64,000 bases of DNA from an uncultured bacterium (GCA_964387845.1 CAYLXA010000001.1:288001-352000); one strand, 5' to 3'. Positions 3,770-62,996 are shown, numbered from the stretch's first letter. The notes: generated by a model not told the origin, from the letters alone. Made by a program: numbers and translations.

Positions 3770-3782
3770 TTTGTGGCCAACA

Positions 3783-5270: not shown

Positions 5271-5285
5271 ATCTTAGGAAAATCT

Positions 5286-5999: not shown

Positions 6000-6802
6000 T
6001 ATTTATCGTATCCCAATTTTTTAAATGAAAGTTTCAGGATTTGTATCACGGTAGAGCGAGGAACTAATTTCTCAACATAATAAAGCGCCCGATTCCACAA
6101 ACCGGTGATGACACTGGCCGTACGGCGGCGTGCAATCGCGCGAAACGCTTCCTCCACAACCTCCTCGGCAGTCTGTGACGGCCGTTTATCAAGCGGATGA
6201 TGCTCGTAACCGGCTGCCTCTCCAAAATTGGTTTCGGTCCTGCCGGGGCATACATTAATAATTTGAATGCCCTTTTCCGAAAATTCGGACGCAACGGCTT
6301 CTGAAAACGACGTCACAAAAGCCTTTGATGCTGCATAAACTGAAAAGTAAGGCATCGGTTGAAAACCGGCCGTTGAAGAGACGTTGATGATCATTCCGTG
6401 CTTTTGACTCACCATGCCGGGTAAAAACAAATGCGTGAGCGCCACGAGCGCTTTGACGTTCACATCCACCATCTCTAACTGGCGCTCGAGATCTAGTCTT
6501 GTAAAACTACCGATTGCGCCAAAGCCGGCATTGTTGACGAGGCAGTCAATCACGATTCCGCCGCCTCGGATTTCTTCATAAATCTTGCGGTACAAATTGT
6601 CATGAGACAGATCGGCGGGCAAAACAACGGTTTTGATCTGATGTTTTTGTTCGAGGACACGCGCAATGGCCGTTAACTTGTCTTCAGAACGAGCCAGCAA
6701 AACGATGTTCCAACCTTCTTTGGCAAACCGCTCGGCAAACGCCTTTCCGATTCCGGATGATGCACCGGTGATCAGAGCCCATTTATTCTGTTTGGTGATC
6801 AT
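5999..6802 (-). CDS. SDR-family short-chain dehydrogenase/reductase
   Basis: TGASSGIG Rossmann motif, NNAG, and the YxxxK catalytic pair (YAASKAF). The start is placed at the internal ATG 6802 (MITKQNKWALITGASSGIG). Confidence 0.8.
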   Translation of the reverse strand: MITKQNKWALITGASSGIGKAFAERFAKEGWNIVLLARSEDKLTAIARVLEQKHQIKTVVLPADLSHDNLYRKIYEEIRGGGIVIDCLVNNAGFGAIGSFTRLDLERQLEMVDVNVKALVALTHLFLPGMVSQKHGMIINVSSTAGFQPMPYFSVYAASKAFVTSFSEAVASEFSEKGIQIINVCPGRTETNFGEAAGYEHHPLDKRPSQTAEEVVEEAFRAIARRRTASVITGLWNRALYYVEKLVPRSTVIQILKLSFKKLGYDK

Positions 6803-6851
6803 AGCCGGTATTATAACACTTAAAAAAGCAAAAACCCTTGGCAATTTCTCG

Positions 6852-6968
6852 CCAAGGGTTTGTGAATCAAATGGAAAAACAGGGTCAGGTGCCAAGGGTC
6901 ATGGGTCAAGGCACAAATGAACGGTTACTCTTGCCTTGACCCTTGCTACTTGCCCCTTGACCCTAAGA
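6852..6968. repeat. cluster of CCTTGACCC / GGGTCAAGG palindromic units, including an 11-bp-stem hairpin (gggtcaaggca ... tgccttgaccc)
   Basis: ccaagggtc, gggtcaaggc and ccttgaccc (twice) are visible between the nrdJ stop and the SDR start. Confidence 0.4.
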
Positions 6969-9900
6969 TCAGGAACAACCGATGCTATTGCCGCAGTTCA
7001 AACATTTATAGCAGGAGCCGTTGCGGACAGTAATATGGCCGCAACCGTTGCAAACCGGTGCATCTCCCATCATGTGCGCCAAATGGTCGCTTAATACGGA
7101 CACGCCCCCTTTGGCTTCTGCTTCTTCCTGCACGCCACCGCCGGTTGACGTATGTGCTACCGACACAGCCGCAACTGCGGTTTGTTTCGCCGAAGAAACC
7201 GGCTCTTGCGGAATCTTTTTTGCTTCAGCGGCTTTTGCCTTTTCGATTTTTTTCTGCTTCGGCGCCTCCGTAATGGCTTCAGCATCCGTCGGGCGGTGGA
7301 TGAAATCGGTACGGCCGAGATATTCCATGCCAAGCACGCGGAACACATAGTCGATCACGGAAGTCGAGAACTTAATATTCGGATGATCCACAGGCCCTTG
7401 CGGCTCAAAGCGCGTGAAGGTAAACACATCCACGAACTCTTTCAGCGGAACTCCGTATTGAAGCCCGAGTGAAATTGAAATCGCAAAGCAGTTCATGAGA
7501 CTTCTGAACGCCGCACCTTCTTTGTGCATATCGATAAAGATTTCGCCCAACGCACCATCCTCATATTCCCCGGTGCGCAGATAAACTTTGTGGCCGGCAA
7601 CTTTGGCTTCCTGCGTAAATCCGGCGCGCTTTTTCGGCAAACGGCGCCTTGAGGGAGCTGCCACCACCGCTTCAACTTCTGCTTTCTTATCGGAATCTTT
7701 GGAATCACCGGTATTGGAACTTAAAGGCTGAGACGCTTTGCAGCCGTCGCGGTAAAGCGCGATGGCCTTCAAACCCAGCTTCCAACCTTCCATATAAATG
7801 TTGTAAATATCCTGTTCGGTTGATTCGTTCGGGATATTGACCGTCTTCGAGATCGCGCCCGAAATAAACGGCTGCGCGGCGGCCATCATGCGGATATGAG
7901 CCATCGGAGCAATAAAACGTTGGCCGTACTTGCCGCACTTATTGGCGCAATCAAACACCGCAAGATGTTCATTCTTCAAATGCGGTGCGCCTTCAACCGT
8001 CATGGTTCCGCAAACCACACGGCCGGCTTCTTCGATCTCAGCTTTCGAGAAACCAAACGCTTCAAGGAGACTAAATCCCGGCGTTTGATATTGCTCCGGC
8101 TTAAATCCAAGGCGTTTCAAAGTATCTTCTCCGAGAATCCAGGAAGCAAACCCATCTTTAAGTTCGAAAATAAACGGAAGCGCGTTTTCTACCTTTTCCA
8201 AATCTTCTTTGGTCAGGCCCTTATTCAAAAGCGCGGATTCGTTCACCCACGGCGAGGTTTTGAGTGAATTGGTTCCGAGCACATATTCAATGATTTCCTT
8301 AGACTCCACTTCGTTGTAGCCAAGATGCTTGAGCGCGGACGGCACGGATTGATTGACGATTTTGAAATAACCGCCGCCTGCGAGCTTTTTGAATTTCACC
8401 AGCGCGAAATCAGGCTCAATGCCGGTTGTGTCGCAATCCATCAAAAGGCCGATGGTGCCGGTCGGCGCAATCACAGTGGCTTGCGCGTTGCGGTAACCAT
8501 AACGCTTTCCGAAATTCACCGCATCGTTCCAATCTTCTTCCGCGGCTTTGAGTAGATAGGAAGGACACTTTTCAGCGCTAATGGCTTTCACGGCAGCGCG
8601 GTGTTTTTCCATCACACGCAAAGTCGGTTCCTGATTTTTTGCGTAACCGGGGAAAGCACCTTTGTGTTGTGCGATTTCGGCGGATACACGGTAACCATGG
8701 CCGGTCAAAATCGCCGTGAGCGCTCCGCAGATCGCAAAACCTTCTTCGCTGTCATACGGAATGCCGTTGACCATCAAAAGCGTTCCGAGATTCGCATAAC
8801 CAAGGCCGAGCGGGCGGTAATCATGGCTGTTCTGGGCAATCTTTTGTGTCGGATAAGATGAGAAATCCACCAGGATTTCCTGCGCGGTAATCAAAATGCG
8901 GATGGCGTGGCGATAACTTTCCACATCCACTGAACCATCTTCATTCAAGAATTTCATCAAGTTGATGGACGACAGGTTGCAGGCTGTATCATCCAAAAAC
9001 ATGTATTCCGAACAAGGATTGGAAGCGTTGATTTTGTCCGTGTTAGACGATGTGTGCCAATCATTGATCGTGGTATCAAATTGAACACCCGGATCCGCGC
9101 ATTCCCAAGCTGAATGGCAGATTTGGTTAAAAAGCTTGCGGGCATCTAGACTTTCGCAAACTTCGCCGGTCGTGCGGAAACGTGTTTCCCATTTTCCGCC
9201 TTCGACAACGGCTTTCATAAACTCATCCGGAACGCGGACGGAATTATTAGAATTTTGGCCGGAAACCGTACGATACGCTTCTCCGTTGAAATCAGCCGGG
9301 TAACCTGCGGCAATTAAAGCGCGGACTTTTCTTTCTTCCTTTTCCTTCCAATTAATGAAGTCGACAATTTCGGGATGGTCCATATCGAGGCAAACCATCT
9401 TGGCCGCACGGCGTGTGGTACCGCCGGATTTCGTGGCGCCCGCGCCGCGATCAAGGACTTCTAAAAATGACATGAGGCCGGATGAAGTACCGCCGCCTGA
9501 AAGTTTTTCCTGACGGCCGCGGAGTTTTGAAAAGTTGGTTCCCGTTCCGGAGCCGTATTTGAAAAGGCGCGCTTCGGCTTTCACCAAATCAAAAATGGAC
9601 ATCAAATCATCGCCGACAGATTGGATAAAGCAAGCGGAGCATTGCGGATGAGAATAAGCGTCTGTGGTCCTTTCAACTGTTCCTGTTTTCGGATTCCAGA
9701 ACCAATTGCCGCCGCTTCCTTTAATACCATATTCATGGTAGAGGCCGCAGTTGAACCATACGGGAGAATTGAAGGCCGCTTTTTGCGTCACGAGGAGATG
9801 GGTAAGCTCCATTTCAAATGCTTCGGCATCTTCCGGAGTGGCAAAATAATTTCCGAGCTCTTCACCTGCGCGGCGGATTGTGTGCGCAATACGCTTCACC

Positions 9901-10238
9901 ACTTGCCGAACGCTGGTTTCGCCGCCGACGCTCGTAACACCGGCCTTCCGGAAATATTTTGAAACCACAATGTCCGTCGCAAGCTGCGTCCAAGACTTTG
10001 GAATTTCGGCGTCTTCCATTTTAAACACAACAGAACCATCGGGATTGCTGATCACAGATTTGCGGCGGTCCCACTCAATCTGATCGAAAGGATGAACGCC
10101 TTCTTGCGTGAATCTGCGCGCAATATGAATCCCTTCACGCGAACTAACACCGGCACCGGCAGAAAAATGTGCTTTTCCGTTTGATCCTGCTTCAGCCGAT
10201 TTATTCGCTTGTTTGGTTTTTTGTGTTTTTGCTGACAT
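6969..10238 (-). CDS. nrdJ: adenosylcobalamin-dependent (class II) ribonucleotide reductase
   Basis: 1089-aa ORF with a Cys-rich C terminus ([27 protein letters not shown]) typical of NrdJ and the RNR catalytic core. A strong SD GGAGG sits 8 nt upstream of the ATG. Confidence 0.9.
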
Positions 10239-15117: not shown

Positions 15118-15212
15118 TTCCCTCTCCCTTTGGGAGAGGGCTAGGGTGAGGGATTTCTATAAATCCCACCACCCTCATCCTAACCTTCTCCCTCTAAAGA
15201 GGGAGAAGGGAT
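15118..15212. repeat. nested palindromic element, family ii (CCCTCTCCC-N3-GGGAGAGGG / GGGTGAGGG), copy A
   Basis: ccctctccctttgggagagggctagggtgaggg ... ccaccctcatcc ... cttctccctctaaagagggagaagg. It overlaps the 3' end of the PabC-like gene, whose C terminus reads PSPSLEGEG. Confidence 0.55.
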
Positions 15213-15989
15213 AAATCGTTTCATTAACCTGCTTGTTATAACGCCCGGAATTTCCGTGCCGATTTGACGGCCATCGAGCGACCGCACCGGCACGATGATA
15301 CCTGTTGAATTGGTTAAAAAGGCTTCATCCGCATTAAATACATCGTGACGCGTTAAGAAGGATTCTTCCGCCGAAATACCCAATTCGAGCGCATATTTTA
15401 ACACAAAACGGCGGACGACTCCATTCAGGATTCCGGCTGTGGGAGGCGTTTTCAACGCGCCTTCCTTCACCATGAAGAAGTTCCAGACTCCGGCCTCGCG
15501 TACATACCCGTCTGGCCCCAGATAAATCCGGTCAAACGAATCGGTACAATCTAAAAAAGCAAGCAGCCCATTGACCAGATCGCCTGATTTTGCTTCCGGC
15601 GGAACGCTGTTTGAGAGGTTGCGCCTCACAGCGGAAGTTTTAAGATCAACGCCTTCCCGATAAATCTTTTCGGGATAAGAGCGCACGGATACGATCGTGA
15701 AAATATTTTTCTCCGAAACAGCCAGACGAATTGAATGGTTTGGATTTTCTTTGGCGATTTCGGCAAGTTCTTTTTCAATCCGTTCACGTTCGGTGGGAAC
15801 TTCAATCCCTGAAGTTTTTGCGGATTCAAACAAACGGTCCAAATGTTCATTCAAATGCAGAATTTTACCGCTCCGGGATTGCATGGTTTCGAAAACGTTT
15901 AATCCAAGCTCCGCCGGCGATATTATAGGAAGCTCTGCCGGTTTTATCTGTTTTCCGTTGATAAAGAGAAGCATATCCGTAAGTGACAT
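15180..15989 (-). CDS. pabC: class IV (branched-chain / D-amino-acid type) aminotransferase-fold enzyme, probably aminodeoxychorismate lyase
   Basis: Fold-type IV PLP enzyme, 269 aa from ATG 15989 (the ORF track uses a TTG at 16007). pabB and folC in the same region support a PabC assignment. Confidence 0.55.
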   Translation of the reverse strand: MSLTDMLLFINGKQIKPAELPIISPAELGLNVFETMQSRSGKILHLNEHLDRLFESAKTSGIEVPTERERIEKELAEIAKENPNHSIRLAVSEKNIFTIVSVRSYPEKIYREGVDLKTSAVRRNLSNSVPPEAKSGDLVNGLLAFLDCTDSFDRIYLGPDGYVREAGVWNFFMVKEGALKTPPTAGILNGVVRRFVLKYALELGISAEESFLTRHDVFNADEAFLTNSTGIIVPVRSLDGRQIGTEIPGVITSRLMKRFIPSPSLEGEG

Positions 15990-16030
15990 GGGAAAAGTAT
16001 AAAGCAAAAAAACAGGGCTGACTATTCGGA

Positions 16031-19000
16031 TTATGCGGAGTAGAAAACCTGCATTTGCGCGCGGAACTTGCCGACCAAATATGCCGCGGCTGATAATACA
16101 TGGTCCACAAACGCTTGGTTCCAGATTATGACCTTGTCTGCGATTTTTTCAAGAAATGGAACGGCAACCGCGTCATCTGAAACACCGATAATGGCCATGG
16201 AAAGACCGAGATTTCTAAGTTCGGCGCGCGCCTTGTGGTAATCCTCAACGGGAACAATCCTATTTTTTGGATTTGCAATGGTTGCATTAATCTCGTCGAT
16301 GACGCGAAGCTCTGCGCGGTTTGTCACGATCACCATGTAAGAACCGTAAACATCCGAAAGATTCCGGCCAACCACAGCCAGACTTCCCTTTTCGCCGAAG
16401 AAAGCGTTACGCGTAAACACTTTCCCTTCCCGCATCTCTGATCGATTTTGAAGTGCTGTAACAATCTGATTGTCAAAACTGCGAGCGTTTGACACAATCC
16501 GGCGCATTTCGCTTCTCGCTACCGGTGCAATCTCAGTTTGCAAATCTCGGAATAACGGATTTTCTTTGACTTCAACTCTTCCTTTAGCAATGGTTTTTTC
16601 AGTCTTTGCAATGACGCGGAAATTAAAAACTGTTTCACCCGAAACTTCGGACTGCACCTTGGCCATAATTAGCGGGAGCCCCAAAACTTCGCTTTGCACC
16701 TTGTCTCCGATTTCAGTATTATTGAAAGCATCTGCTTGATTTAGAATCGACTTTTCAATCGCGCTTTGAAAATCGATTGGTTTGATTTTTTGAAGGCTTT
16801 CCGGCAGCAATTCCTTGTTAATTTCGCCTTCCAAATGAATACTGACATCATAACGGCTTCCAATTGTCTTTTGAGCGATTGTAAAATTCCGGTGTTCGCT
16901 TGTTAGCGATTTGACGCCCGCCTGCTCATAAAATTGAGCATCAATAACGGGAACCTCGCGGTCTGCGATCTCTTCTAAAATCCGGACCGCGCGATGAATA
17001 TATTTAGCGTGCCGGAAACTTCTTCGCTCATTTTCGCTCAGAGTCAAACTCCTGTTTTTCATCTGCAATTCCGAATACCAGCGCCGGAATAACTTCATAA
17101 TTTGAATCAGCGAAAGCGGCTGGTTAGCGCCGAGCGGATTGGATGAATTTTGTTCGTAAATTCTATTAATATCTGTCTCGCTTTGAGCTGTCCAGCTTGA
17201 TTTTTCCTGATTTAAAACCGCTTTAAGTACCGGAATATAAAAACCTGTGTCACGCTCAATCCACCAATTAAGCACATAAAGAGCGGCGAAGCGCGCAGAT
17301 TGGCGCAGCATATCCGGATTAAAGTTTTTAGGCGCTACTTCAATGAGCGGTTTCCATTCATCAACCGGAATAACCGGTTCAGCTAAGTATTGAAGCAGTG
17401 TTTCGAGGCCAACCTCATTTCCTTTTCCAAGCTCATCGGCTCTTGTCTTCCGGATTGTAAAATTAGGATGCGACAAATTTCTAAGAAGTTTTTGCACCGA
17501 ACGCAGTTCTGATTTTTGGCTGCCGGCATCAGGCCCAGGCATCGGCTCTGTCAATTTTTGGAAACGTTCGGCCAATTCGGTTTCTGAGATTTTAAACATT
17601 TCGTCAACAAACGCTTCGGAACCGCCAAGCTCCCCTCCGTCTTCTCCGAATAAACGGACTTCGACTAACTCATGAAACGCAACGGCAAATCTTTCGGCCG
17701 ATATCCTTTCTTCATCCGTTTTGAATTCAAACTGAAAAGCGAGACGCGTATCCTTAACCGCTTCAAGCGTCATCAAGGCCATCGGATTATCCGCTTCGAT
17801 CCATTCAGCACTCCCTTTGTTCAGATTTTTGATCTTAACAGAAACATTTTTTGCTAGGGCGGCTTGCGCCATTTCGACAATGAACATCGCTGGACTCGCA
17901 TGGACACCTTGCCGGTTCTTGACCGTAACATTGATCTCAATGCTGTTACTTTCCCCTTCCCGCAATTCCGACATGTTTCTATCAGTCGGCGTTACGGACT
18001 TTTTATATTCATTAATCTGATGATCGAGAAAAGCTTCGTAACTATCAATGGCCTGGCTTGTTTGCGCCAACCACTCTTCTTCTTCTTTCAATAATAGGCC
18101 ATGTTCTTCTTTCATTCCCTTCAAAGCAGACTTTGCTTTTCGAAGCTCTGGTAATATTCTGAGATAATAATCGTTCGCTTCCGCGGCTAGAGAATTGCCT
18201 CGATCCGAAACTGACAAAATAAAGCTGCTGAAACGATTCAACAAAACTTCCGTGCGGCTCAATAAAATCTTAATTCTGAGCTGCTGTTCATCCAAAGCGA
18301 TTCGCCTCGGTTTGATAAGAGAATAATAAAGGAGCGCTCCGACTCCTATGCCTATCGCGCCCGCTGAAATACCGATAACGGTATAATTTCGTAATTCAGA
18401 ACGATGTTTAGGCGGACGGGGAAAACTTTGAAAAGGCCCCCTGCGCGCAGCGCGGACAGCCTGAATTCTCGCCGTCACTTCTTCAATAGTATCTAAGTCA
18501 CCGGCTAATTCTGCGTTATGAAGCTCGACTTCCAATCTTGCCAAATCCGTCGAGTGATGCGATTGGTCTACAGCAAACGGAAGCTCGATCGGCTCCTCAT
18601 TTTCCAAATCATTGCGCAGTTCCGAACGGACACCGGATTTTTCGCGAGGCGGCTGTTCAGATTTCGGCGGAACCGGGATCCATCCTTCCCACCGGCGGTA
18701 AACATGCGTAGGCCGCGTCCCTACTTCATTGGAAATATTTTTACCGCGCACGCCATGAACCTGATGGGCTTCATCACGCCGTAAAACTTCGGCTCTTTGT
18801 GCACGAAAATAATCATCCGTAAAATGAGTGATTTCGCCGGTTTTTAAGCCCGCGCGGCGCCAGTCAATGTGCCCTTCGGGATGAACAACACGCATATCTT
18901 TCTTCAGTACCTGCAAAGCTCCGGAAAATGCGGCGTGATTAAACAAAATAACTGTTTTCCCGCGATACTGCTCGTTCATGCGTTTCCAAAAAGCGGCGGC

Positions 19001-22000
19001 GCGGATGATTAAATGGGCAAAACTTTCGCCATGCTCAGGTTTCGCCAAAACACTCCACTTTTGATAACTTCGCGCGGCCTTGAATTGTTCCCGGCCAAAC
19101 TGCGCCTTAATTTGCTCATTGGTGAGCCCTTCCCATTCGCCTTGAAAAATTTCTTTTGTATCGGGATCAATCATCACTTTCAGTTCAATTCCTAATTTTT
19201 CACGTACCAACCGGATAAATGGTTCTGCCGTATCCCGCACACGCCCAAGCGGATTAATGATCACCACAAACTGATCCGGATTTGCTGTGATTTGGTCTTT
19301 AAACTTTTCAAATAATTTTTCAGCGTCAGCTTGCGCTTGCACGCGCCCTTTTGGCGTCAACTGCGCGCCTTCGTTATCCATACCGCTTCCCTGAAACCTC
19401 TTTCTCCCTGTTCTTAGCCCTTCCGCAATGATGTGAGTTTCTCCGTGGCGGATAACGTAAAGATCCAGATCAAGCGCCGGTGGGAAATAAGGCTCTTTAT
19501 AAAAAAGCTGCCCGGTCGATTGATTGACCCAAAAACCCATTTGTTGCAATGTTTCGGAAACATTTTTTCGCAATTCCACCCTCGCCTTCATTAATAAATC
19601 CGGCTGTATTGCACTGGTCGGAACCACAAGTTTGCCGTTTTCCCAATAGACCAGCGCACTCAAAAACTGGAACATGACCGGATCATGTTTTCTCACAAAA
19701 TCAGGGTCAAGCCAGTAAAGAGACTGGGCTTCAAAGAAAAACTCTCGCGCAGAAACAATGCTGTATCGGCTCAAAAACTGCGTTTCAATTTCTTCTTGAG
19801 AATAATCAAGCACCTGCTTCTTTTTCCCAAATTGCCTTTCAAGTGCCTGCAGCCTAGTCTCATAAATCCGTTTTGCAATCTGATAAACTGCTGTTTTATC
19901 GTGTGGAATGTTCACAATAGAGAGTGGTAAATTTTTATTCGCAAAATGCTCTAAGCGCTCAAAGTTAATCGGCAGCGCATACTGATTATGCTCAACGAGC
20001 GTTTCCGCAAGTTCGTGAGTCAGGAGCCGTTCTAAATAAGTAAAGTCCTTATCCCTCACCTTCAAAAATTCATCGCTCACTGGCCCGTCATAGGAGATCG
20101 GATGATCGCCCGCATAAAGTGAAAGAAAGATCGATTTAACATTGGACAGCACAGGATGAAGGGAGTGATAGGTAACGCCTCCCAAATGATCTCCGTTGCG
20201 TCTTACGATAGAACGCGCAATAAATACTTGGGCATTGAGCATTTTAAAAAGCGGTGCAATTGCAATGCCGGCCCTATGGCTTTCAAGGAAATGATTGAGC
20301 TGGCCATATAACTTACGCGCTAATCTCCAGTCGGTTTCACTGTTTAATCCATGCAATACATCAGTCCGAATATGTGCAGAAGAGCCTTGTAGATAACCCA
20401 AAACAATTTGACGCAATTCCGCCCTTGCCCCCTTTGAAGAAACATTTTCATGATCCGCTGGGGCCGAGGGGCTTTCTTGTAGTTCTTGCAAAATTAATAT
20501 CACTTCGTCCGGAAGTCCTAATGCGCTTAAAGCATCCTTGGCGCTTTCGAGCTGATGAAAACTGAAATGATCCGCAAATCTTTCTGCGCGAGACTTATTT
20601 CCCAGCAACCCTGTCAAAAATGGGATAGCCAACTCACGAAAATGAATGCACCATGGCTCCGCTTGAAGAATCCGGTTGGTCAGATAAAGCAGTTTTTTAA
20701 GCTGTTTAAACGATAAATCGCTATCTTGAAGCGCGGCACGGATTGCGTCATGGCCTGCATCCAACAACATAGTCTTAGGGGCAGCACTTTCCGCTTCGGA
20801 ATTCCTGAGCTCGGAACGTATGGCTCTAGATTTAATAGCAACGCTGCCGAGATACACATTGCCGCTCTGGTGATAAAGAAGCGGGTTTTCGTGGCCATCC
20901 ATGCTGATAACGTCTCCATCCGCGATATCACGGCCGGCGATGAGCCAAAGATGCTTTTCCGGCTGGAACACCATGTCCGGAACGCCATAAACGGCCGAAA
21001 TGCCTTCTTTCTGCGCCAGCGTTTCCGCATGCACTGAAATGGTCTTCGCTAAAATATGAACCCCTTTTGGAATCCGGTTAATCATTTCGGGATTCACTCT
21101 GTCCAAGATCAAAATAACGCCGTCAACATCCGCTCGGGGATGAGAAACAAGTTCGCCCAAAAGCTTTTCCGCTGCTTCTATCGAATTAGCCGCCAAACCG
21201 CGAATCGCACCGCCGCTCACGCCATGGCCGCGCGCAATCGGCTGATTGTCAGTCGAGTCGGCAAATTCCGGATATTGATCCGTCACAAAATCATCATTGC
21301 TTTGGACAATCCATATCTTTCCGCGCTCAATCGTGAATTCAAACTGCTGGTTGTAACGGAAAATGTTCTTGAGCTTACGCGCGTACTCGAACACTTGTGC
21401 GTAAAGCTCCGGCTGCAATGCTTCAAATGTTTGTTCATCCGGCCGGATTCGCTCACCATTTCCGATTAAAATGTAATTTTGGCCGGCACGGCTCATCAAT
21501 TGATCGCCGATCGAGTGAAACCGAAATTTACCTTGGAGCACGTCATGGCCGTCCGGAAGTGTTCTCAAAACTGCGTGCCCCGCGCCTGAAATTTTCCCGT
21601 CATCAGTCGGCTTTAAATTTCCGAAAACGCCTTTCTGCAGAATAACGACCGTTCCCCACTCTTGCGAAATCTGATGCCGTGTACGATACGCGCGTGCCTC
21701 TTCGGAGTCCCACGATGCATAAACCGCTTCGACTGCCATCATGACCTGATCCATCATGTCGTTTGGAATTATTTTGCCGTGCCGCGCCACGATTGCTTTG
21801 CACTGTTCCACCACTGCCTTCATGCCGTCTGCCGACAAATCTTCCTTTTCTTTAACATTCAAAACCTGCTCAAATTCCGCCTCAGGAATACCGAGCACAT
21901 TGATCGAAAATGACCGGATAAATTCCGCGTAGGTGTCATACGCAAACCACGCATCGCCGCTTTTTTGGGCAAGCGCTTCGGCTTCCGCGTCGTTCATGCC

Positions 22001-25000
22001 CACATTCGACACAGTAGCCAAAAGGCCGGGCAGCATGAAAGCAGAACCGCTTCGCGCGTACAAAATAAGCTTGAGGTCGGGATACTCGGAGTAGCGTTTG
22101 AGCCGTTCGATTTCGGCTGCGATTTTTTGACGGAATTCGTCCGACCTGAAAATGTCGGGTTTCGTCACTAACTTGGCGCTCAAGATGACACCCGGCGGTA
22201 CGGGAATCCTCTCGTGCGTCATGCGGATCAAGTTCAGGCCCTTTTTGCTCCAAAGCGAGAGAAGTTCCGGCCGTTCATCCGTTTCATTTTCGCCAAACCG
22301 GTACAAATGTTGCTCGAAATCATCCGGCCTTTCCGCGCCGGCATCCTCACGGATGGCTTCGTCCTGGCCTTGCGAAAGCGCAGAAGCGAGAACAGCATCA
22401 AATTTCATGAGCGCGCGGTCAAATGCCGTCGCGCCGGAATTCCGGATCAGCTCATCAATCACCGCGGCTTCAAGTCTCTCTTTTCCTTCAGGCGGAAAGT
22501 CATAAATTTGATAAGTCTGATCATCCTCTGTTTTGGTTTTGATTTTAAAGAGGCTGGTATGTTCGCGCCATAATTTTGCCAGATCGTGATAACCAACTTC
22601 ATCCAAGCTGTATTGCATGGCCGCGCGCATGGTGTTATTTAGTTGCCGGGTAATTTTGTGGACTTCGGCCTCAAGCGTGTGGACCAAATCGTAGAGCTGC
22701 GACGCCTTAATGCTGCCCGAATCAAGCTCAACCATCAATTGATCAAAATCGACACCACCCAGCCCTGAAGCCTGAATAAACCGGCCGAGCGCAATGAGAT
22801 TGGGCAATTCGCGCCGCAAATCGTCTACAGAATTTATTTTTTCAATCTTTTCCTGGACGTGAGCAATCTTTTCCGAAGCTAAAATCGATAATTTCTCGCT
22901 CATTTCAACCAACGTGCGTAAATCATATAGATAATCACCTTCTTCATGCATATCGTTCCACTCCTGGTCTATATCATCCGCATCCTCATCGGCCGAATCT
23001 TCGCCGTCCCGCCCAATGCTCTTCTCTGCCTGTCCCAATACTTTTTTCTGATTTTCCTCTCCGGAAAGCAAAAACTCTTTAAGATCATTTTGCACTTTCA
23101 CGATGGCGGAGAAAATGGCCGCATGATCATCAGAATCGATCAACATAAGCAGCCGATCGTAATCCTCCCGCATAAACCGGGTAATGGCCGTCATTTTCTT
23201 TTTCAAGTACCCACCGTCACGCAGATCTTCAGTTTCTCCTTTTAAGAAAGGAACGATCGTCGCGACGCGAGTTCCGAAATGATCCGCAAAAGCCAAATAA
23301 AGTTGAGTCATTAATTGAACGCGTTCATAGTCAATCTCGGACACATCTTCATCCCGGTTCGCTTCTTCATAAATCGCGACTACTTCACGCTCCGGAATGT
23401 CCAGGATTTCATCCAGAAAAGCCTCCGGATCGCTTTTGCTGATTTTCCCTTTGGCCGCAAGCGCTTTGACAAAACGGTTCAAGAGTTTTGAATAAGTTTG
23501 AAGAGTCGCTGGATTGAAATCTTTTGTCATATCATCCCGCAGCAGAGTCCAGTTGCTTTCCTTTAAAATAGACTCATCAAGCGTCAACCAATAAGCAAGA
23601 ACTCTTCTCGTATTCTCAAAGTCACTTCTATTCAAGTTTCGATGAATACCGTCTCTAAAATGGCTGAACCATCCGCGGCCAAACTCGCCGGGATAAGAGG
23701 CATTATTATCAAGCCGTCTTGAATAGCTGATAATACGGTCCTGCGAATTATCCGTAGAGACGCCGCCCTTGCGTTCGGCTTCGATGACTTTCATTAAATA
23801 AAAATAGGCCGCTCGGGCGTTTGGTTGATGGAGCAAATACAAGGACATCTGCGGATACTCTATGCGCTTTCTGCCTTCGCTTGGAATATCACGCACAAGG
23901 CCTTGGGCTGCCACAAAAGCAGCGGCAAGCGGATCCGCCGGTGAAACGCTCAGCAAGATAGAAATCAGTTCCCTGAAAAATTCGTGGCCTATGGTTCGGA
24001 GGTGCAGCAGAAGGTGAATCAGTTTACCCAAGTCGTCAGGACTTGCTTGGCGGAAAGTTGCTTCTAAATCATGGTGGATATCAGCTTTGATGTAATGCTC
24101 ATTAAAGTAAGCGGCTGCCAACTCAAGAAAAATCCGGTTCTCTTCCGGCGAATTTGTTTTAGAGAGGTAAATCGGAATCAAATGCTCTTTAAAGAAAGCA
24201 TCCGTCATTCTATAGCGGTCGGGCGACATCGCGCTCGACACGTACCACAAGTAGCTCTGTTTCTTATCCAGCGGTAAATCTGCTTTTAAAATAAACTCGC
24301 GAATCAAATTCTGCAGATGCTCTTTAGAATTTTTTTTAAGTAGGTCGATAATCGCCTCTTTCCTCGCCCCGACGGCTTGATTTTGCTCAAACGACAGGTG
24401 CTTGCCGCCTCTTCCAAAACTTAGTTTCATGAGTGTTTGGTAATCGCGCAGCGCTTTTTCGAATTCTTTATAAGACATTGGGTTTGTACGACCGTCCGAC
24501 CTGAGCTCGGAACGTTTTTGGGCAGTAAGTGTTTTTAAATTCGGAAAAAGTGTGCGGAACGGTTCGCCGAAAAAGAGGCGGCGTCGGACAGCCTCTTTGC
24601 GGCGATGAATAAATGCGGCTTGAGTCGGAAAAATAAGATGCCTCGGCAGAGGAGCGTATTTTAAATAAACAGGAGCTGATGTATTGATACCAACATTTAA
24701 TTCCGGGTCTTGCAAATTCGGCAGCGGAAGCGTGAGCACCGCATCCCGCAGAGGATTTTTACTGCGGTCACCGATTGTGCGAATCAGCATGCTGGCTTGA
24801 ACCTCGCTTACATCCCACGGTGAACGGAATCCCAGCCGAACCCAGTCAGATTCATTACGCGATAAAACTTCCGCGACCAGTTTTTCTATTTTTTCATTCG
24901 AAATTTTTCGGCCCGTTTCAACACCGTTCTGATCCAGTTCGGGAACATCGGTCAGCATCCGGCTTAGATATTCCGTCATGGATTGTTTTCCGGTGCGGCG

Positions 25001-28000
25001 TTTTGTATCGTCCGGCCAAAATCTGGCGCCATACTTCAGTGAGAATATTTTTACGCCCAGATCTGTGGATCTGTAACCAAACTTCCAATCATGAACGTCT
25101 TGATCCAGCATGACCGATAAGGCCCATAGCATCAAATTTCGATACGTGAAACCCGGATAAGACTGCGAGAATTTTCGTGTAGACGGCGGTATATCGGCCA
25201 AACGTTCTTCGGGCCATGCCGATACAACACTAATGAACCGCTTGACATAATCGGCCAGCAGCTCGTTGTCCGAGGGTTTCTTGATTTCTTTCCCGTCAAA
25301 TTCCTCAATATGAAGACCGGTCGGACGCAGATGTATGACTTGCGTCAAGCCCAATGTCCAGTAAGCGTAAAATAAATCCTCTAAACCACCCGCAAGCAGA
25401 TGATCCAGACGGCCTGCAAATTTTTCAAATTCGTCCAGGTCTTTGAAATAGGGATCGATTAACGTTGCCAAAAATTGGTTGAGGTTGCCGAATTTCTTGT
25501 CAAGGCCCCGGTTTTCCCATTCCCGGCGCAATTCGACGCCGAGCTCGCGTAATTCCCTATTCGAAAATCCTTCGGGCAATACCTTGCTCCAATAAATGCG
25601 CCTGTCCTCTGAGCCGCTTCTGGGCCAAAACCGATTGGAGTCGTGCGGGCTCAATAGAAACGTCAGAGCTTCAAGGATATCGCCTTCCGTCAGACTGTCA
25701 TAAATCTTATTCGGAGAGCCCGCTTGATCCATCAAATCGCGAATCACATCCATAACTTGATCGACTTTTGAACGTTGGGTGACCGCGGCAGTTTGCCTAA
25801 GTTCCGAACGGTTTTTCAGAATTTGCCGCCGTTCTTCGAGCGTAAAAAATTGTTTTTCGTAAGCTCTTTTTGCGGCTTCCCGGATTTTTCTATTAAACCG
25901 GTCTAAATCAGTTATTTCCTTCTTTAAAAAATCAAGCCACTGTTTTGGTTCAATGGTCATTTCCCCGAAAAATTCGTCGCTCAAAAGCATCAACAGCTGC
26001 ACAAATGCGACTTTGTACAAAGGATCTTCCTGATCCAAGGCAGCCCGCATCGCATCTGATACCGGAAGTACCGGATTCAGATAAGGGAACAGGATTTGAG
26101 CCGGATAGGACGACCGGATTAATTCATTCAATTTAGCTTCTACTTCAAAGTAAGCATGGGCCAACAACCCCTGCTGATCGCCTTCATACCCGCCCAGCGC
26201 ATGAGCCAGCAAACTTCCGGGACGCAGGATAGCTTTCATCACATTAATCCAATAGAGCGATGTTGAGTAATCGTTTTCTCCCTTATAAAATTCGTTTGCA
26301 AACACATAGGCATCGGAATGGCTAAGTTCCTCCTCTAAAACTCCGCTCCGGTATAATTGTGCGACATACCCATAATCGCCCAAACTATAAAAATGCATTT
26401 GAATCCAATCTCGTAAGTAAGCGACGGGTGATTGATCAAAATTGGGAAATTGATACTGGCCCGTTTCATATAACTTTTTCAAATTTTGGTAATAATCAAA
26501 ATTTTCTATCGAAGGAACGTCGGTGCCTTCAATAATGACAATATGCCTGTCTTTCGCAAATGCACTTAGGTAACTGTCGCTCTTTCCGTCTCTCGATTTG
26601 AGGCGAACGGTGTAAACCGGAACAAACCGGCCTGCCGCAGAGCGCTGAGATTCCCTTTTGATAATTTTACCGACCAAGAGTCCGCTGCCGTTCACTATGT
26701 CCACGATCAGGCCACGTGGAATTAAAATATCGTCCGCGATTTTTGTTCCTATTTTTCCGATATCATAAATAGAAATCAAATCTTTGTGGCCAAATGAAAA
26801 AGCGGCATCAAAATCCGGTGAAAGAGGCCTGAGAACCTGGTTGAATGTTTCAACGGCCTCAAGACGGTTTAAGTCATTTAGACTGGCTTTTTCGACTAGG
26901 TACTTTAGCTTCGGCCAATAGCTCACCCAAAACCATTCCACAACATCAAAGCTGGGGCTATCCGGATTTAGGAGCCTAAACTCTCTGATTAAGTTGAGAA
27001 TTTGATTCGCCTGGCTGGTGTTGAGCGTGATCTTTCCGCGCAAAGCTTTGATAATGCCTTGCGCATTTAAATTTTGAGTTTCCAAAAATTCTTTCAGAAC
27101 ATCTACGGTAAAAAAGCGTTTAATATTTTTTACGCTTAATTTCGAAATGATGAGAGCATGCAGCGTTTGAACCGGATCCGTATTTACTGCTTGTGCCGTC
27201 TGATTGCGCAATTCAGAGCGGAGTAGCTCAGACTGCGGGGCAGCGGTTTGACCTTGCAACGGGATTTCCCAGAAATTGCGGGCGTTGCGGGCAGAATCGA
27301 AGAATGCTCTGGCTTTCGCACGGTTGCCTTTGGTTAACTCGAATAATCCAAAAATAATTGCGTAAGCTCTTTCCGTAAAGCTACGCGACTTTTTTAGCAC
27401 AAAGTCACGGGCCAGCCACCGGTAACGGAATGCGTCAAAATGATACTGAAAACCGGCTTCCGGATCGTGAATCTTTTTAATTGTATTGCGCGAGGCTCCC
27501 TGAGAGTAGTGCTGATCTAAATAATCGCGGCCGTAGTTGGTAATCCCTGCATAGATCTTCTTAAAGCCCGAACGCCGCGCGACATCTTGAAGAATCTGAA
27601 TCGCTTCCGGCATCAGTTCATCGAAATATTTTGCACCGTCATTGTTAAACTCGAAACTGTTGACCGTTAGTACCGGATCTCCATTGTCTTCCGATGCAAT
27701 CATCCACATCTGTGCCCGATGCTGATAGGCATCGCCTGAACCCTTGTGATCGATGTCCGCCAGGATAATTCCGTCGTCACTCAGGAGAGAGGGCAAAATC
27801 CAGGAGACAAAATGCTGCAGAGAAATACAATTTCCGATGGCTTCACTTGAAGTGAGAAAATCTATCGCGCCTTTCAGGGTCTTTTTGTCGTGAATTCTTA
27901 TTCGAATTCCCTTTTCTTTATTTTCGTAAACCCTGCCCTTCTCAAATTCAGAAACATTGATGCCGATTGCCTGCATTTTTTTCTCAATGGCTGAAACATG

Positions 28001-31000
28001 GCCTGTTTTGCGAAGTCTTTCTGACAAATAATCACGCAATCTTTTGTAATACAAAATTCCGGGCGCAATATTGAGCCGCGTGCTGATCAAAAAAGTTCCT
28101 GGCGCGATAATTCCCATCAAAATAAAAAACAAGGCAGCATTTGAAATGAGAGGATAAATGGTAAAAACGCCGAACCCGACCAGAAACGCGAAAGCGGTCG
28201 GCGCCACCCAAGCATAAATGGGCCTTGGCGGCTTTCTAAGGCCTTTCAAAATGCGTGGATTCATCGTGACAATGTCGAGAGCATCTGCAATGCTGATCCC
28301 GAGTGCGCGCCGCACTTTGGCAATTTCGGAAATTTTCATGCGGCTCAGGCGCGTGGCTTTCATAAATTTCTGAACCGCCATGAGTTTGTCAAAAGCGTCT
28401 TTTTTAAGACTGTCCCGCACCGCTTTGTCTTCGGAAAGCCTGCGCATAGCTTCTTGATTTGAGGCTGACCAGACTACGGCAATAACTTCTTCCGTTTTTT
28501 TCCGCTGGTCAGGCGAAAGTTTATCCAAAAACTTAAGCACATTGACGAGATCGCCGTCTTTAACGGACACGTTGTACAGAATTTCTTCAAAAAAGTACCG
28601 CAAATTCCGGTTTGGACTTGGAAAATATTCGAGCAACTTTTCAAGTTTCGCGATTGCGCGCGGAGGATAGCTCATTTTCTGCGCAACGGGATTTTCATTA
28701 ATTTCAGCGAGAATGGTTTCGATAAATTTTGGATATGCGCGGAGCTCGGATCGCTGCTCATCGGTTTTTTTTGCGATTGCCCTCCTTTCAGACTTATGCT
28801 GAAACCACCACATTCCTCCAAAAAGAAGCAGAAGCGGCGGGATCAAGGAAGCATTGTCCGTAAGCCAGGCAACGGGCCCGGTCACAACAAGAACAAGCGA
28901 GGCTGTAATTGCCTTAAGAAAATATTGTTTCCGGAACTTAAACCACCACGTTTTATACTGAGTCGGAAAAATCTTAACGCGGTTCGATGGTTGAATTAAA
29001 TCCGTTACATAACCAATCACTTCACCTTTTGGGAAAGCATACTCCAAAGGCTCGACCGGATACCCATAAACGTCTAAATATTGTTTTTGGGAAGGATCGG
29101 CATATTCGATCGATACAAGCTCGGGCTGTTTGCCGGATTTCTTAACATAATCGACAAGCCTCTTAGGCCCTTGATTGAGCGGATAAGCAAAATAAAGAAC
29201 TGATTTAAATCCGCATGCCCGGGCATAGTTCTCGATGATTTTTTGAATTCCCTTCGCCTTTGCATCAAAAATTCGCCCCTCCACACCGTCCACAAATAAA
29301 ATCGGCTGTTCTTTTCCGTCTTGATCCTTATAAATCGCGGCGGCGATTCTGGCCCGTACCCGGCGGCCTTCGCGCGTACGGAAATCAATCGCTGAAATAC
29401 TTTTGTTGTGCAAATAATTAAACGGGCCCAGCGCACCTTTTGTTCTCCGGTTTAATTTGTCAAGCCACGTGTTGCCGCGAAGCGACGCCGAAGAAAAGAA
29501 ATCCTTTTGATTGGTTAAATCAAACCACGGATCGCGCCGCCAAATCCGGGCTTCTACAATTGAGTCCGGTAAATTTCCCCAATCGTCAATCTTGGAGATA
29601 CTTTTCTGAAGGTATTGATTGGCCTTCGCGGCATTGGGGTTTACATATTGGCCCAGCTCTTGCAGCAACTTTTTTCCTTCCTCGACAGGCAATTCACCTC
29701 TTTTATTCCTGGCCAATTCTTCTTTGTGCGCATTGAAAAATTGAGTGACCGACTTCTTACCCTCCTTTAAATTGGGCGTGTACTGTCCGGGCTTAAACTG
29801 GCGGTCTTCGGTTGAACCCAAAAAATCCCTGAGTATTTTCTGGATAAACTCGGGGATGGTTTGATTTTCCGCGTCTTCGAATTCCCCTGCCGGTACTTTT
29901 TCAATATTATCCCCGCGAATTTGATAATAGACTTTGTAATCCGGATTATCCCAATTTTCGTTGATGCCGACCGATTTGAGACGCTCCATGGTTTGAATCG
30001 CTGCCTCGGTCTGGTCAAACCATTGCCGGTAACTTCGCCGCTTAAGCATGGAGGCCAGATCCAACGCGGAAATTGTTTTCCACGAAAAAATGAACATTCG
30101 TTTCGCAAATACCGCCAAAATGTAAACCAAGGCTGTGAAACCTGACGCCACAAACAAGCTTTCAATCCATCCTGCGGGATCAGAATTGTTGATCATTTCC
30201 CTAATATTTAAGCTTGCTAAATTTCCATCCATCCAAAAAGAAATAGCGGAATAGAAAATTGTGAGCGCTGCGCGTTGAACCGAAGCATAGAAATATCCAA
30301 TAACGCCAGTGAAGGAAACCGCGAGAAGATGCAGCCACGGGTTCTGAATGAGCGCCGTACGGGCGTGCGCAATCCGTGCGCGTTCTAATTTTTCTTCGTT
30401 AATTTTGTTCAAGTCAATCTTTAAACTTTTAAACTTTTTCCACAAAAATTTCAGCTCCGGGAAACCGTCTTTCTCCATCCGCTCGTCGATTTCGGCAATG
30501 GTGAGATCTGAATTCTCACGCAGTTCACTGGCTGCCTTTGGATTTTTGCTTTTTCCGTTTCCGGAAAAAGCGTTGCGCGTCAGAACACCGATCGTTTTAA
30601 ACACCAGCGCGGTGTTATAAAGTGCCGACCGGTCCCGGATATCGTTTAACTCCAGCTCTATGTCATGCGTGTCCATGCCAAACTTTCCGGTTCCGATACC
30701 CCGCTTTAGAGCGCTTGAGCTGAGAAAACCCGGCTTGGTGTGATGTAAAACACTTTCGATATAATTTTGATCAACTTCCAAAGGTAAGCGCGGCCTTGGC
30801 CCAAACCATTGCATGTCACCGCGGACAATCGACAAGAGCTGCGGAAGCTCATCAAGCCCCGTTCTGCGCAAAAACCATTCGTAAGGCGTAATGCTTTCAT
30901 CTGAAATGTTGAAATCAAGTTTCATGGTTTTAATTTTTCGTATCACAATCGTCTTGCCCTGAAAACCGATTCGCTCTTGAATAAAAAACATGGGGCCGCT

Positions 31001-34084: not shown

Positions 34085-35578
34085 TTATCTGTTGGAAAGG
34101 GCTTCGACAAGCGCTTTTCCCTTGTGAAGCGTCTCTTGATACTCTGCGGCGGGTTTTGAATCATGCACAATACCGGCGCCGACTTGGAAGTAACCCTTTT
34201 GCTGATTAATCACGATTGTGCGGATCACAATGTTGAGATCCAGATCACCATCAAAACCAAAATAGCCAATGGAGCCGGTATAAATCCCGCGTTTGAAAGG
34301 TTCCAGCTCTTCGATAATTTCCATACAGCGAATCTTTGGGCATCCCGTGATAGTTCCGCCCGGGAACATCGCGCGTACCAAATCAAATTGATCCGCATCA
34401 TCACGAAGCTCGCCCTTTACGTTTGAGACAATGTGCACAACGTGTGAATATTCCTCAAGCGCCATCATCTCGCTCACGCGCACCGTGTGCGGCTTGCACA
34501 CGCGCCCCAAATCATTGCGTTCCAGATCTACTAGCATAATGTGCTCGGCGCGCTCTTTATCATTTGAGATAAGTTCACTGCGCAGTTTCTGATTTTGCAC
34601 TGCCGTTTTCCCGCGCGGCCGGGTCCCTGCAATCGGGCGCGTTTCGCACGCACTTCCCCGCTTTTTGATGAGGCGCTCCGGCGAAGAGCTAATCACCTGC
34701 AAATCGCCGAGACGAAAGAAACTGGAAAAAGGTGACGGATTGATATCCCGCAAACGTTCATAGAGTTTCTCAGAACTTCCTGAGAAATCAAACGAGAACC
34801 GCTGTGAAAGATTGGCTTGATAAATATCGCCTGCCTCTATGTAATCTTTGCCTTTTTTGACAATCGCTTCGAATTTTGATTTTTGAATATCAGATTTAAA
34901 ATTCTGAATTTGTATTTGTCCATTTTGATAAAGCGTTTGATTGAGTTTCGAGAGAGTCTCTTGAATCCAATTTTGACTTTCACTTAGCTGATCCTCAAAA
35001 CTCTTTCTCTCGGAAGGCATTAAATTGCTGATGAGATAAATCGCTTTCTTTGATTCATCGTAAGCGATCAAATTTCGGATGAATAGGAAAACAGCTTCAT
35101 CCAGTTTTTGGTCATTCTTCGCCCGGTTGGGCAGGCGTTCAAAATCCCACGCCAAATCATAGGAAAAATAACCAACCGCGCCGCCTAAAAATTCAGGGCC
35201 GGCGTTCCATTTTCTTCCGCGATAAGTTTTAAAGAGCTTGCGCATTTCCAGAAGAAAATCACCGCGTTTTTTTACGACCCTCACCCTGCCCTCTCCCTCA
35301 GGGAGAGGGAAACGCGAAGCGTGGGTGAGGGATTTTTCGATCGAAATATTTTTACCCTGCTTTCGCAAGATTAAAAACGGGTCGCTGGCCATATAGGAAA
35401 ATGTACCGGTTTTCTGGTGAAAGCGCGCGCTATCCAGGATAAACGAATTTTCGGAAGACTGGATCCTGCGGAAAGTTTCCCAGGAACTCAACGAAGCGGG
35501 GATTTTTTGGATCAGCGGAACAATGAAGCCTTTTTGGAAATATTTTCGAAGTGTCGTGATGGGCAGAACGTTATTCAT
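34085..35578 (-). CDS. pabB: chorismate-binding enzyme, aminodeoxychorismate synthase component I (PabB) / anthranilate synthase component I family
   Basis: C-terminal chorismate-binding signature (PIAGTRPRG...ERAEHIMLVDLERNDLGRV...GGTITGCPK). Assigned PabB-like because pabC-like and folC genes are nearby and no trpG/trpD is present. Confidence 0.65.
   Translation of the reverse strand: MNNVLPITTLRKYFQKGFIVPLIQKIPASLSSWETFRRIQSSENSFILDSARFHQKTGTFSYMASDPFLILRKQGKNISIEKSLTHASRFPLPEGEGRVRVVKKRGDFLLEMRKLFKTYRGRKWNAGPEFLGGAVGYFSYDLAWDFERLPNRAKNDQKLDEAVFLFIRNLIAYDESKKAIYLISNLMPSERKSFEDQLSESQNWIQETLSKLNQTLYQNGQIQIQNFKSDIQKSKFEAIVKKGKDYIEAGDIYQANLSQRFSFDFSGSSEKLYERLRDINPSPFSSFFRLGDLQVISSSPERLIKKRGSACETRPIAGTRPRGKTAVQNQKLRSELISNDKERAEHIMLVDLERNDLGRVCKPHTVRVSEMMALEEYSHVVHIVSNVKGELRDDADQFDLVRAMFPGGTITGCPKIRCMEIIEELEPFKRGIYTGSIGYFGFDGDLDLNIVIRTIVINQQKGYFQVGAGIVHDSKPAAEYQETLHKGKALVEALSNR
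35278..35331. repeat. family ii nested palindromic element, copy B, inside the pabB-like coding frame
   Basis: ccctcaccctgccctctccctcagggagagggaaacgcgaagcgtgggtgaggg. It is translated in frame as FPLPEGEGRVRVV near aa 85-100. Confidence 0.5.
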
Positions 35579-39917: not shown

Positions 39918-40070
39918 GAAACACCCCTCTTATTGGTTTTAAATGGAGGGGGGATTTTAATTTTGTTTTTTACTGCGGGAGATATGGAATTATATATAAC
40001 TTTTACGATTAATCAACACTCAACTTCTAGCCTGTCCCCTTAGAAGGTGCCTGGCACTTTTTTTATGAGA

Positions 40071-62986: not shown

Positions 62987-62996
62987 GACGGCCTCC

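Follow-up and report, generated by a model that had tools for sequence, protein, structure and literature searches.

What is the function of a dikinase, a histidine phosphatase and an HPr-like phosphocarrier domain that are encoded together in one open reading frame (ORF), and do these domains hand a phosphoryl group to one another? The question is raised by a 64,000-nucleotide stretch of DNA from an uncultured bacterium (GCA_964387845.1 CAYLXA010000001.1:288001-352000; hereafter, the window), which contains a giant ORF that is free of stop codons across 17.9 kb. A sequence-only reading of the window had described positions 17701-22274, i.e., residues ~3895-5419 of the giant protein, as a phosphotransfer toolkit, and the peptide strings that it quoted all occur in the translation at the residues given. 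This stretch makes up the last, C-terminal quarter of a giant 'multi-enzyme' protein from an Omnitrophota bacterium, and the dikinase, His_Phos_1 and HPr-like domains within it are three independent, separate and shuffled modules, the identities of which are real. They were recognised by splitting the giant protein at a recurring pentapeptide, R-S-E-L-R, and scanning each piece against Pfam, and the results of NCBIfam and Protein Data Bank (PDB) searches were concordant. All three phosphoryl-handling modules look catalytically competent. The best explanation, which we hold with somewhat less than even confidence, is that an ATP-charged histidine donor derived from pyruvate,phosphate dikinase (PPDK) serves an acceptor other than phosphoenolpyruvate (PEP), together with a phosphatase, and that the modules are released at the pentapeptide.

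The PPDK-like character of the dikinase module was borne out by profile and structure-database searches. Its ATP-grasp domain matches PPDK_N at 44 bits (E=2e-11, gathering cutoff 27) and the TIGR01828 model of PPDK at 212 bits (E=1e-62), the latter only over profile positions 2-334 of 865 and with an equivalog cutoff of 843. PDB PPDKs are matched by residues 3887-4359 at E=2e-47 in phmmer and at E=5e-62 with a seven-sequence profile; the best sequence matches of the module are PPDKs, and PEP synthase is matched weakly. Residues 3880-4381 share ~30% identity, over 94-99% of their length, with the first ~510 residues of 876-aa PPDKs, and align colinearly with C. symbiosum PPDK (2R82; also 1KBL) at its residues 7-338 (ATP-grasp) and 422-504 (swivel). 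The swivel domain is sub-threshold in Pfam PEP-utilizers (15.4 bits vs. a cutoff of 23.1), and the isolated PPDK central domain 2fm4 is matched by the seven-sequence profile at E=3e-5. The phosphohistidine that had been proposed for this domain is His4310 (codon 21029-21031), which aligns with the catalytic His455 of C. symbiosum PPDK ('KTISVHAETLAQK' over 'GGMTSHAAVVARG'; 'SVHAETLAQK' over 'TSHAAVVARG') and lies within an S-V-H-A motif that is invariant in seven sequences. The equivalents of C. symbiosum K22, R92, E323 and Q335 are retained and likewise invariant, as are R-S-G-S-A-F, K-K-G and the Glu and Gln of the Mg site, although the overall identity among the seven aligned sequences is 32-44%. 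The T453-S454 pair preceding His455 is replaced by S-V.

What distinguishes the module from PPDK is the missing PEP/pyruvate-binding TIM barrel. The sequence-only reading had found neither a barrel nor its GTNDL motif, and this observation stands: in a tblastn search of the window with a genuine 876-aa PPDK, matches were confined to PPDK residues 4-510; a custom hidden Markov model (HMM) of the C-terminal domain, run with filters off against the six-frame translation of the window, did not find a barrel; no G-x-N-D-L motif occurs in the giant ORF; and Pfam detected neither PEP-utilizers_N nor PEP-utilizers_C there. The ATP-grasp and swivel domains are only ~55 residues apart, and the unit ends ~25 residues past the latter, without the second linker of PPDK. 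As there is no barrel in the ORF or the window, the module is, judged by sequence, clearly PPDK-derived, yet not a PPDK or PEP synthase. A likeness to rifampin phosphotransferase or glucan-water dikinase had also been suggested. It holds only as an analogy, and not in sequence, which is PPDK-derived, nor in domain order, which is ATP-grasp, RIF-binding, His in the former, carbohydrate-binding module ... His, ATP-grasp in the latter, and helical domain, ATP-grasp, His in the window.

The helical domain and the dikinase together form a conserved 'dikinase unit', which genome and metagenome scans located at 18 loci (L005-L010 and L013-L024; fragments were found in L002-L004 in addition). When the whole giant protein was compared with these 18 relatives by tblastn/blastp, only aa ~3160-4379 were common to them, and in a seven-sequence alignment (A2) homology begins ~8 residues past the RSELR at 3149 and ends ~6 residues short of the RSELR at 4381. 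Every named relative is a Candidatus Omnitrophota metagenome-assembled genome, as are all relatives with at least 45% identity; the closest is L013 (55%). The giant protein itself occurs on a 409-kb NCBI contig, as a singleton. The ~730-residue helical region is 22-32% identical in six relatives and has no match in Pfam, NCBIfam or PDB, and aa 3154-3890 have no homologue in a word-indexed database of 5.8e9 proteins. A single-sequence AlphaFold2 (AF2) model of it is all alpha, at low confidence (pLDDT 49). This region is a candidate acceptor-binding or scaffold domain. In L008, the whole helical and dikinase unit is present in two tandem copies (L008:2140-5208 and 6742-9981) within one ORF of at least 3,395 aa. 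In L002, an in-frame TGA (position 787-789) within PPDK_N is aligned to an invariant Gly of the relatives; a sequencing error, a pseudogene and the reading of UGA as Gly (code 25) are possible explanations, and adjacent modules are separate ORFs there.

Giant 'Archaeovorin' or multi-enzyme proteins of Omnitrophota have been described in two preprints (West-Roberts et al. 2023, bioRxiv 10.1101/2023.11.21.568195; Nielsen & Lui 2026, bioRxiv 10.64898/2026.06.07.730766). The protein in the window resembles these in phylum, which is assigned from its relatives, and in the tiling of one membrane-associated ORF by unrelated enzyme domains; PPDK_N, methyltransferase, sugar-transferase, HAD and receiver domains are the typical content. 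At 5,975 aa it is well under the published thresholds of 10,000-30,000 aa for giant proteins. In these preprints, the PPDK domains of Omnitrophota giants are read as interconverting pyruvate and PEP, and the assumption of West-Roberts et al. would fit a split enzyme in which the unit works with a barrel that is encoded at another place in the genome and acts in trans. Indeed, the giant ORF of L017 contains a divergent, separate, motif-delimited PEP-utilizers_C module (aa ~1300-1700, ~2,100 residues upstream of the dikinase unit; 26 bits vs. a cutoff of 22.8) with GLVRTD, RTPD, MVE, GNNDL and FCGG catalytic-type motifs. However, no barrel was found in the compared ORFs of L013, L015, L018 and L019, just as in the ORF and window studied here; the unit stops soon after the swivel domain; and Asn replaces R337 in the seven aligned sequences. 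A split PPDK is thus quite unlikely, and the missing barrel argues against the pyruvate/PEP reading of the PPDK domain here.

The modules that accompany the unit, in the same or the next ORF, vary between relatives. In L017, two canonical stand-alone receiver domains (141 bits; aa 4261-4402 and 4777-4917 of a 5,494-aa protein), each bracketed by RSExR, come directly after the unit, and neither HisKA nor HATPase_c was found at E<=0.001 in that giant ORF. In L013, a receiver-like module (30.1 bits) is next but one after the unit. L005 has a weak HAD-like match, below cutoff (L002 has a similar motif by eye only), L010 has acetate-kinase-like and Pta-like domains and an SNF2 helicase, and L009 has a methyltransferase far downstream. 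No HPr or His_Phos_1 module is present in any of these loci. Since the HPr-like and His_Phos_1 modules have no detectable homologues, the specific three-domain toolkit is, among the sequences compared, unique to this genome.

These comparisons bear on two other ways of explaining the locus. As suggested in the sequence-only reading, a methyltransferase, a PglC-like phosphoglycosyl transferase, the dikinase and the phosphatase would act as a fused pathway, the product of which is a phosphorylated, methylated glycoconjugate or lipid. A Bac_transf/PglC-type domain (103 bits) and an S-adenosylmethionine-dependent methyltransferase were indeed detected by Pfam upstream in the same ORF, transmembrane (TM) helices are numerous, and the phosphorylation of glycans by glucan-water dikinases (PMC13553574) shows that the class is capable of such a reaction. 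However, the methyltransferase, PglC, histidine phosphatase and HPr modules do not travel with the dikinase unit in the 18 loci, module synteny being absent in all relatives; PglC and the dikinase are ~2,700 residues apart, with orphan modules between them; and Pfam, NCBIfam and PDB searches detected no carbohydrate-binding or glycan-related domain in the dikinase unit. Such a pathway is not supported by the comparison of loci, and we give little credence to it. The looser idea, that the dikinase sits near other phosphoryl-handling modules, has some comparative support, as receivers follow the unit in two relatives. The second explanation is that the dikinase, phosphatase and HPr-like domains are unrelated enzymes with different substrates, which module shuffling has placed in a giant ORF without any phosphorelay. 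The unit alone is conserved, its partners change in every relative, the giant ORFs of relatives occupy unrelated genomic contexts, and two orphan modules and a TM-anchored module intervene among the three domains; many unrelated Pfam families are reported to tile such proteins in the two preprints. Nonetheless, phosphoryl modules recur downstream of the unit (receivers in L017 and L013, HAD-like in L005, acetate kinase/Pta-like in L010), and encoding in a single ORF enforces co-expression. This recurrence of phosphoryl-accepting or -handling modules is suggestive, not decisive, and an unlinked mosaic is, in our view, rather unlikely.

With regard to the phosphatase, the predicted RHGE-type enzyme was confirmed as a His_Phos_1 module (77 bits, E=2e-21, cutoff 21.7), which holds the full branch-1 set R-H-R-E-H: R4837-H4838-G, the Arg in 'PLGRVRDTA', the Glu in 'GEWEG' and the His in 'LFNHAAF'. 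It is nearest to CobC, PspA, PhoE and Rv2228c-type enzymes, and no SixA family is among the matches. The HPr-like identity of the third module also held, with PTS-HPr (PF00381) matched at 38.8 bits (E=1e-9, cutoff 23) and the histidine kept: His5353 (codon 17900-17902) lies in G-V-H-A-S-P-A and is aligned with GMHARPA of E. coli NPr, the best-aligning protein. The equivalent of Ser46 is Asn, and the domain scores 25.4 bits against TIGR01003, under the cutoff of 47.9. In a single-sequence AF2 model of low confidence (pLDDT 58.5), it adopts a beta-alpha-beta-beta-alpha-beta-alpha topology, for which the top Foldseek matches are NPr 5t17 and HPr 3ihs (E=0.009-0.04). No homologue of aa 4798-5482 was found in the word-indexed database; a search of 1.84e9 cluster representatives with the HPr-like module returned weak FPr-type HPr matches only, and metagenome contigs contained no relatives of the C-terminal 1,590 residues. 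A match of P0105 to the HPr module was rejected as a low-complexity repeat artefact.

It might be argued that the PPDK-like and HPr-like domains have lost their catalytic activity and persist for a structural or binding role, given the D321Q and R337N substitutions in the dikinase, the loss of Arg17 and Ser46 from the HPr-like domain, and the low scores of the HPr-like and swivel domains against curated models. In PPDK, mutagenesis has pointed to K22, R92, D321, E323, Q335 and R337 as functionally important residues. A degenerate scaffold is highly unlikely, as the catalytic His and the K22, R92, E323 and Q335 equivalents are invariant among divergent sequences and all catalytic residues are kept in the phosphatase.

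The modules are delimited by a short repeated peptide. Ten exact copies of RSELR, together with the variants RAELR, RSEMR, RVELR and K/M/S-SELR, make up ~20 sites in the giant protein, and every recognisable module is bounded by them; the segments are mostly 70-590 residues long, the longest being the dikinase unit (1,227 residues) and the shortest a few small pieces near the C-terminus. There are 16 matches to the strict pattern [RK][SA]E[LMIAV]R, compared with 0.16 expected from shuffles, and the motif has a single occurrence in all other frames and ORFs of the window. Each codon position varies synonymously (e.g., CGC-TCG-GAA-TTG-CGA vs. CGT-TCC-GAG-CTC-AGG); thus, the motif is conserved at the peptide level. 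A recombination scar, a palindrome, codon reassignment and internal start sites were rejected as its origin, both on account of this variation and because the sites are not followed by a Met or any start pattern. The motif is also present in the giant ORFs of L013 (11 sites), L017 (9), L018/L020 (10) and L019 (3), and is absent from the other relatives. These are four motif-bearing Omnitrophota contigs besides the window, giving five giant ORFs from different environments, each of which has its own variant preference. Motif sites coincide with the edges of homology blocks; the N-boundary site of the dikinase unit is conserved in position between the window and L013, and starts a longer unit in L017, L018 and L019. 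The residues flanking the motif are small and polar.

Several features that are typical of N-termini follow the motif directly. A lipoprotein-like signal peptide is found right after it at aa 291-312 (33023-33088, minus strand; 'AFKILKLIQLFSLIGLASVGC') and at aa 1589-1616 of the L013 giant ORF ('...AALISAIAIAAAVGGC'). Likewise, a TM anchor (aa 5192-5215; 18314-18385) opens the 138-aa module directly after RSELR and is followed by a coiled coil, and the N-terminal helix of PglC comes after the site at 934. The mid-protein signal peptides suggest that the segments need free N-termini of their own, and R-S-E-L-R is accordingly put forward as a candidate proteolytic cleavage site. Most simply, it would be recognised in trans by a reader, which is most likely a protease. 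Modular polypeptides that are cut at conserved inter-module sites are known from MARTX toxins and viral polyproteins. The giant protein resembles them in that its shuffled modules are set apart by a short conserved peptide, the copies of which show concerted variation within each protein. In the literature, a search for RSELR turned up only an unrelated alginate-lyase motif. The C-terminal ~160 residues (aa 5820-5975; 16034-16501, minus strand) contain four copies of the motif at spacings of 19-37 residues, and the pieces between them are too short for independent proteins. An ending of the type '...A-A' or '...S-A' occurs in several related giant ORFs as well.

In the scheme that we favour, the dikinase unit, which derives from PPDK by loss of the PEP/pyruvate barrel and acquisition of the helical N-domain, most likely uses ATP and Mg to charge His4310 on the swivel domain, from which the phosphoryl group would pass to an acceptor other than pyruvate. 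This acceptor might be a protein, i.e., the HPr-like His5353 here or the Asp of stand-alone receiver domains in relatives, or it might be a ligand bound to the helical N-domain. The part of the His_Phos_1 module would be to hydrolyse a phospho-product or to reset the relay. Release at the R-S-E-L-R boundaries probably lets the modules act as individual polypeptides; in an uncut chain, the TM helix would put the HPr-like module across the membrane from the ATP-dependent dikinase. For the three modules to share an ATP-containing compartment, either the chain must be cut at the motif or the TM helix must not be inserted.

The proposal of a phosphohistidine donor is based on PPDK chemistry and on an analogy with VadK (Rv1127c) of M. 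tuberculosis, a truncated PPDK without a barrel, which phosphorylates itself on His422 with ATP/Mg and serves as a regulatory kinase (EMBO Rep 2026, PMC13400623). Both the autophosphorylation of His4310 and the identity of the acceptor are inferred. VadK is the closest characterised analogue of the dikinase module, since both consist of PPDK-derived ATP-binding and phosphohistidine domains without the PEP/pyruvate barrel. The short-PPDK model NF004531 (PRK05878) is matched by the window module at 137 bits, below the cutoff of 456, so that orthology is not indicated. Moreover, VadK is a free actinobacterial protein of ~490 aa, whereas the pair in the window is fused behind the helical domain in a giant ORF; it is only ~30% identical to PPDKs, equally far from short and full-length ones, and carries R337N. 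A comparison can also be drawn with the phosphotransferase system (PTS), as one ORF combines a swivel His domain homologous to that of Enzyme I, an HPr/NPr-like carrier with an active His and an enzyme of the histidine-phosphatase superfamily. In contrast to the PTS, the donor would be ATP via an ATP-grasp domain, not PEP. For a SixA-type reset, the phosphatase would be the counterpart, but it resembles CobC, PspA and PhoE-type enzymes. No PTS component, including EII, was found within the 64-kb window.

A number of observations weigh against this scheme. The D321 equivalent is Gln here and variable among relatives, and the R337 equivalent is Asn in all seven aligned sequences and Ser in L002; such substitutions may have altered the ATP chemistry. 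Direct transfer from the dikinase to the HPr-like module is made less plausible by the lack of an Enzyme-I-type HPr-docking subdomain, for which the linker has no room, and by the replacement of Arg17 by Ser in the HPr-like domain. The structure models of both the HPr-like domain and the helical region are low-confidence, single-sequence predictions. In no relative do the HPr-like and His_Phos modules occur together with the dikinase, and because these modules have no detectable homologues, co-occurrence does not probe their link to it. In addition, receiver and HAD domains are common across Omnitrophota giant proteins; hence, their adjacency to the unit may reflect base rates. Cleavage at the motif is a step that we infer, and, in contrast to MARTX toxins and viral polyproteins, the giant protein showed no domain of a processing protease: Pfam and NCBIfam scans detected no peptidase family in the ORF or the window. 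Nor was a conserved neighbouring protease found; the window holds housekeeping genes only, and the contexts of the relatives are unrelated.

Giant multi-enzyme ORFs of Omnitrophota, the frequent presence of PPDK_N in them and the role of truncated PPDKs as histidine kinases are already known. Compared with those sources, the barrel-less, N-terminally extended Omnitrophota unit appears to be new, as does its juxtaposition with HPr-like or receiver modules and, above all, the boundary pentapeptide. According to the 2023 preprint (10.1101/2023.11.21.568195), cleavage points are not known and "information about cleavage points" is lacking, and term searches of both preprints did not find a repeated boundary motif. 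Whether the giants are processed to smaller products was explicitly left open by West-Roberts et al.; the pentapeptide supplies concrete, testable predictions of cut sites for this question, and is of interest for that reason. The missing barrel and the likeness to the newly described VadK-type kinase would shift the role of PPDK domains in these giants from metabolism to phosphoryl signalling. In a more tentative and rather unlikely extension, a clade of Omnitrophota might encode chromosomal polyproteins with ~20 proteins per ORF, cut at a co-evolving R-S-E-[LMIAV]-R, the products of which include an ATP-grasp histidine phosphodonor feeding HPr-like or receiver modules. If true, this would amount to a phosphorelay without PEP and without a classical histidine kinase, and the polyprotein products would comprise enzymes, lipoproteins, membrane anchors and signalling domains.

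Table 1. Coordinates of the giant ORF, its modules and boundary motifs in the window, and of motif-bearing giant ORFs in relatives (L-prefixed positions).
Feature	Position	Strand	Residues (aa)	Remarks
Giant ORF	16031..33958	minus	5,975 aa	N-terminal signal peptide; ~10 hydrophobic helices; ~22 segments bounded by R-S-E-L-R-type pentapeptides
Conserved dikinase unit	20816..24499	minus	3154-4381	helical region + dikinase
All-helical N-terminal region of unit	22292..24484	minus	3159-3889	
ATP-grasp nucleotide-binding domain, PPDK-type	21293..22300	minus	3887-4222	
Swivelling phosphohistidine domain	20882..21124	minus	4279-4359	
RSELR closing dikinase unit	20804..20818	minus		
Two orphan modules	19580..20800	minus	4387-4512 and 4518-4793	
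Histidine-phosphatase-superfamily module His_Phos_1	18626..19564	minus	4799-5111	
70-aa module, then 138-aa module	17972..18610	minus		between phosphatase and HPr-like modules
Divergent HPr/NPr-like phosphocarrier module	17513..17956	minus	5335-5482	domain 5341-5417
Motif site RSELR	24500-24514			
Motif site RAELR	20411-20425			
Motif site RVELR	19568-19582			
Motif site RSELR	18614-18628			
Motif site RSELR	18389-18403			
Motif site MSELR	17960-17974			
Motif site KSELR	17501-17515			
Motif sites in giant protein			76, 286, 526, 537, 934, 1143, 1736, 2247, 2717, 3149, 4381, 4512, 4793, 5111, 5186, 5329, 5482, 5815, 5839, 5881, 5911	
Giant ORF of L013	L013:3479-15961			motif-bearing
Giant ORF of L017	L017:572-17053			motif-bearing
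Giant ORF of L018/L020	L018/L020:2645-15364			motif-bearing
Giant ORF of L019	L019:15-8357			motif-bearing

Pfam and NCBIfam recognised no family for the two orphan modules, and no paralogy was seen among the modules of the giant protein. The giant ORF is flanked by genes for a chorismate-binding PabB/TrpE-like protein (34085-35578, minus strand) and a class-IV, PabC-like aminotransferase (15180-16007, minus strand), beyond which lie purH, folC, mnmE and a class II ribonucleotide reductase gene; by the look of it, the ORF was inserted into a cluster of folate-related genes. Elsewhere in the window are genes for PEP carboxylase, malate dehydrogenase, succinate dehydrogenase/fumarate reductase and succinyl-CoA synthetase, as well as for polyamine enzymes, proteins of cytochrome c biogenesis and multihaem cytochromes.

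Some minor features of the window may also be mentioned. An ORF6N-domain gene adjoins a HEPN AbiU2-like gene (39378-40739, minus strand), possibly as a defence or toxin-antitoxin pair, and the sole sizeable plus-strand gene near this pair (37988-39097) encodes myo-inositol-1-phosphate synthase. Finally, a 753-aa ORF without a Pfam match (60899-63160, minus strand) adjoins the ResB/CcsA-type cytochrome c biogenesis genes and overlaps with the beginning of a gene for a multihaem cytochrome (62997-63779).

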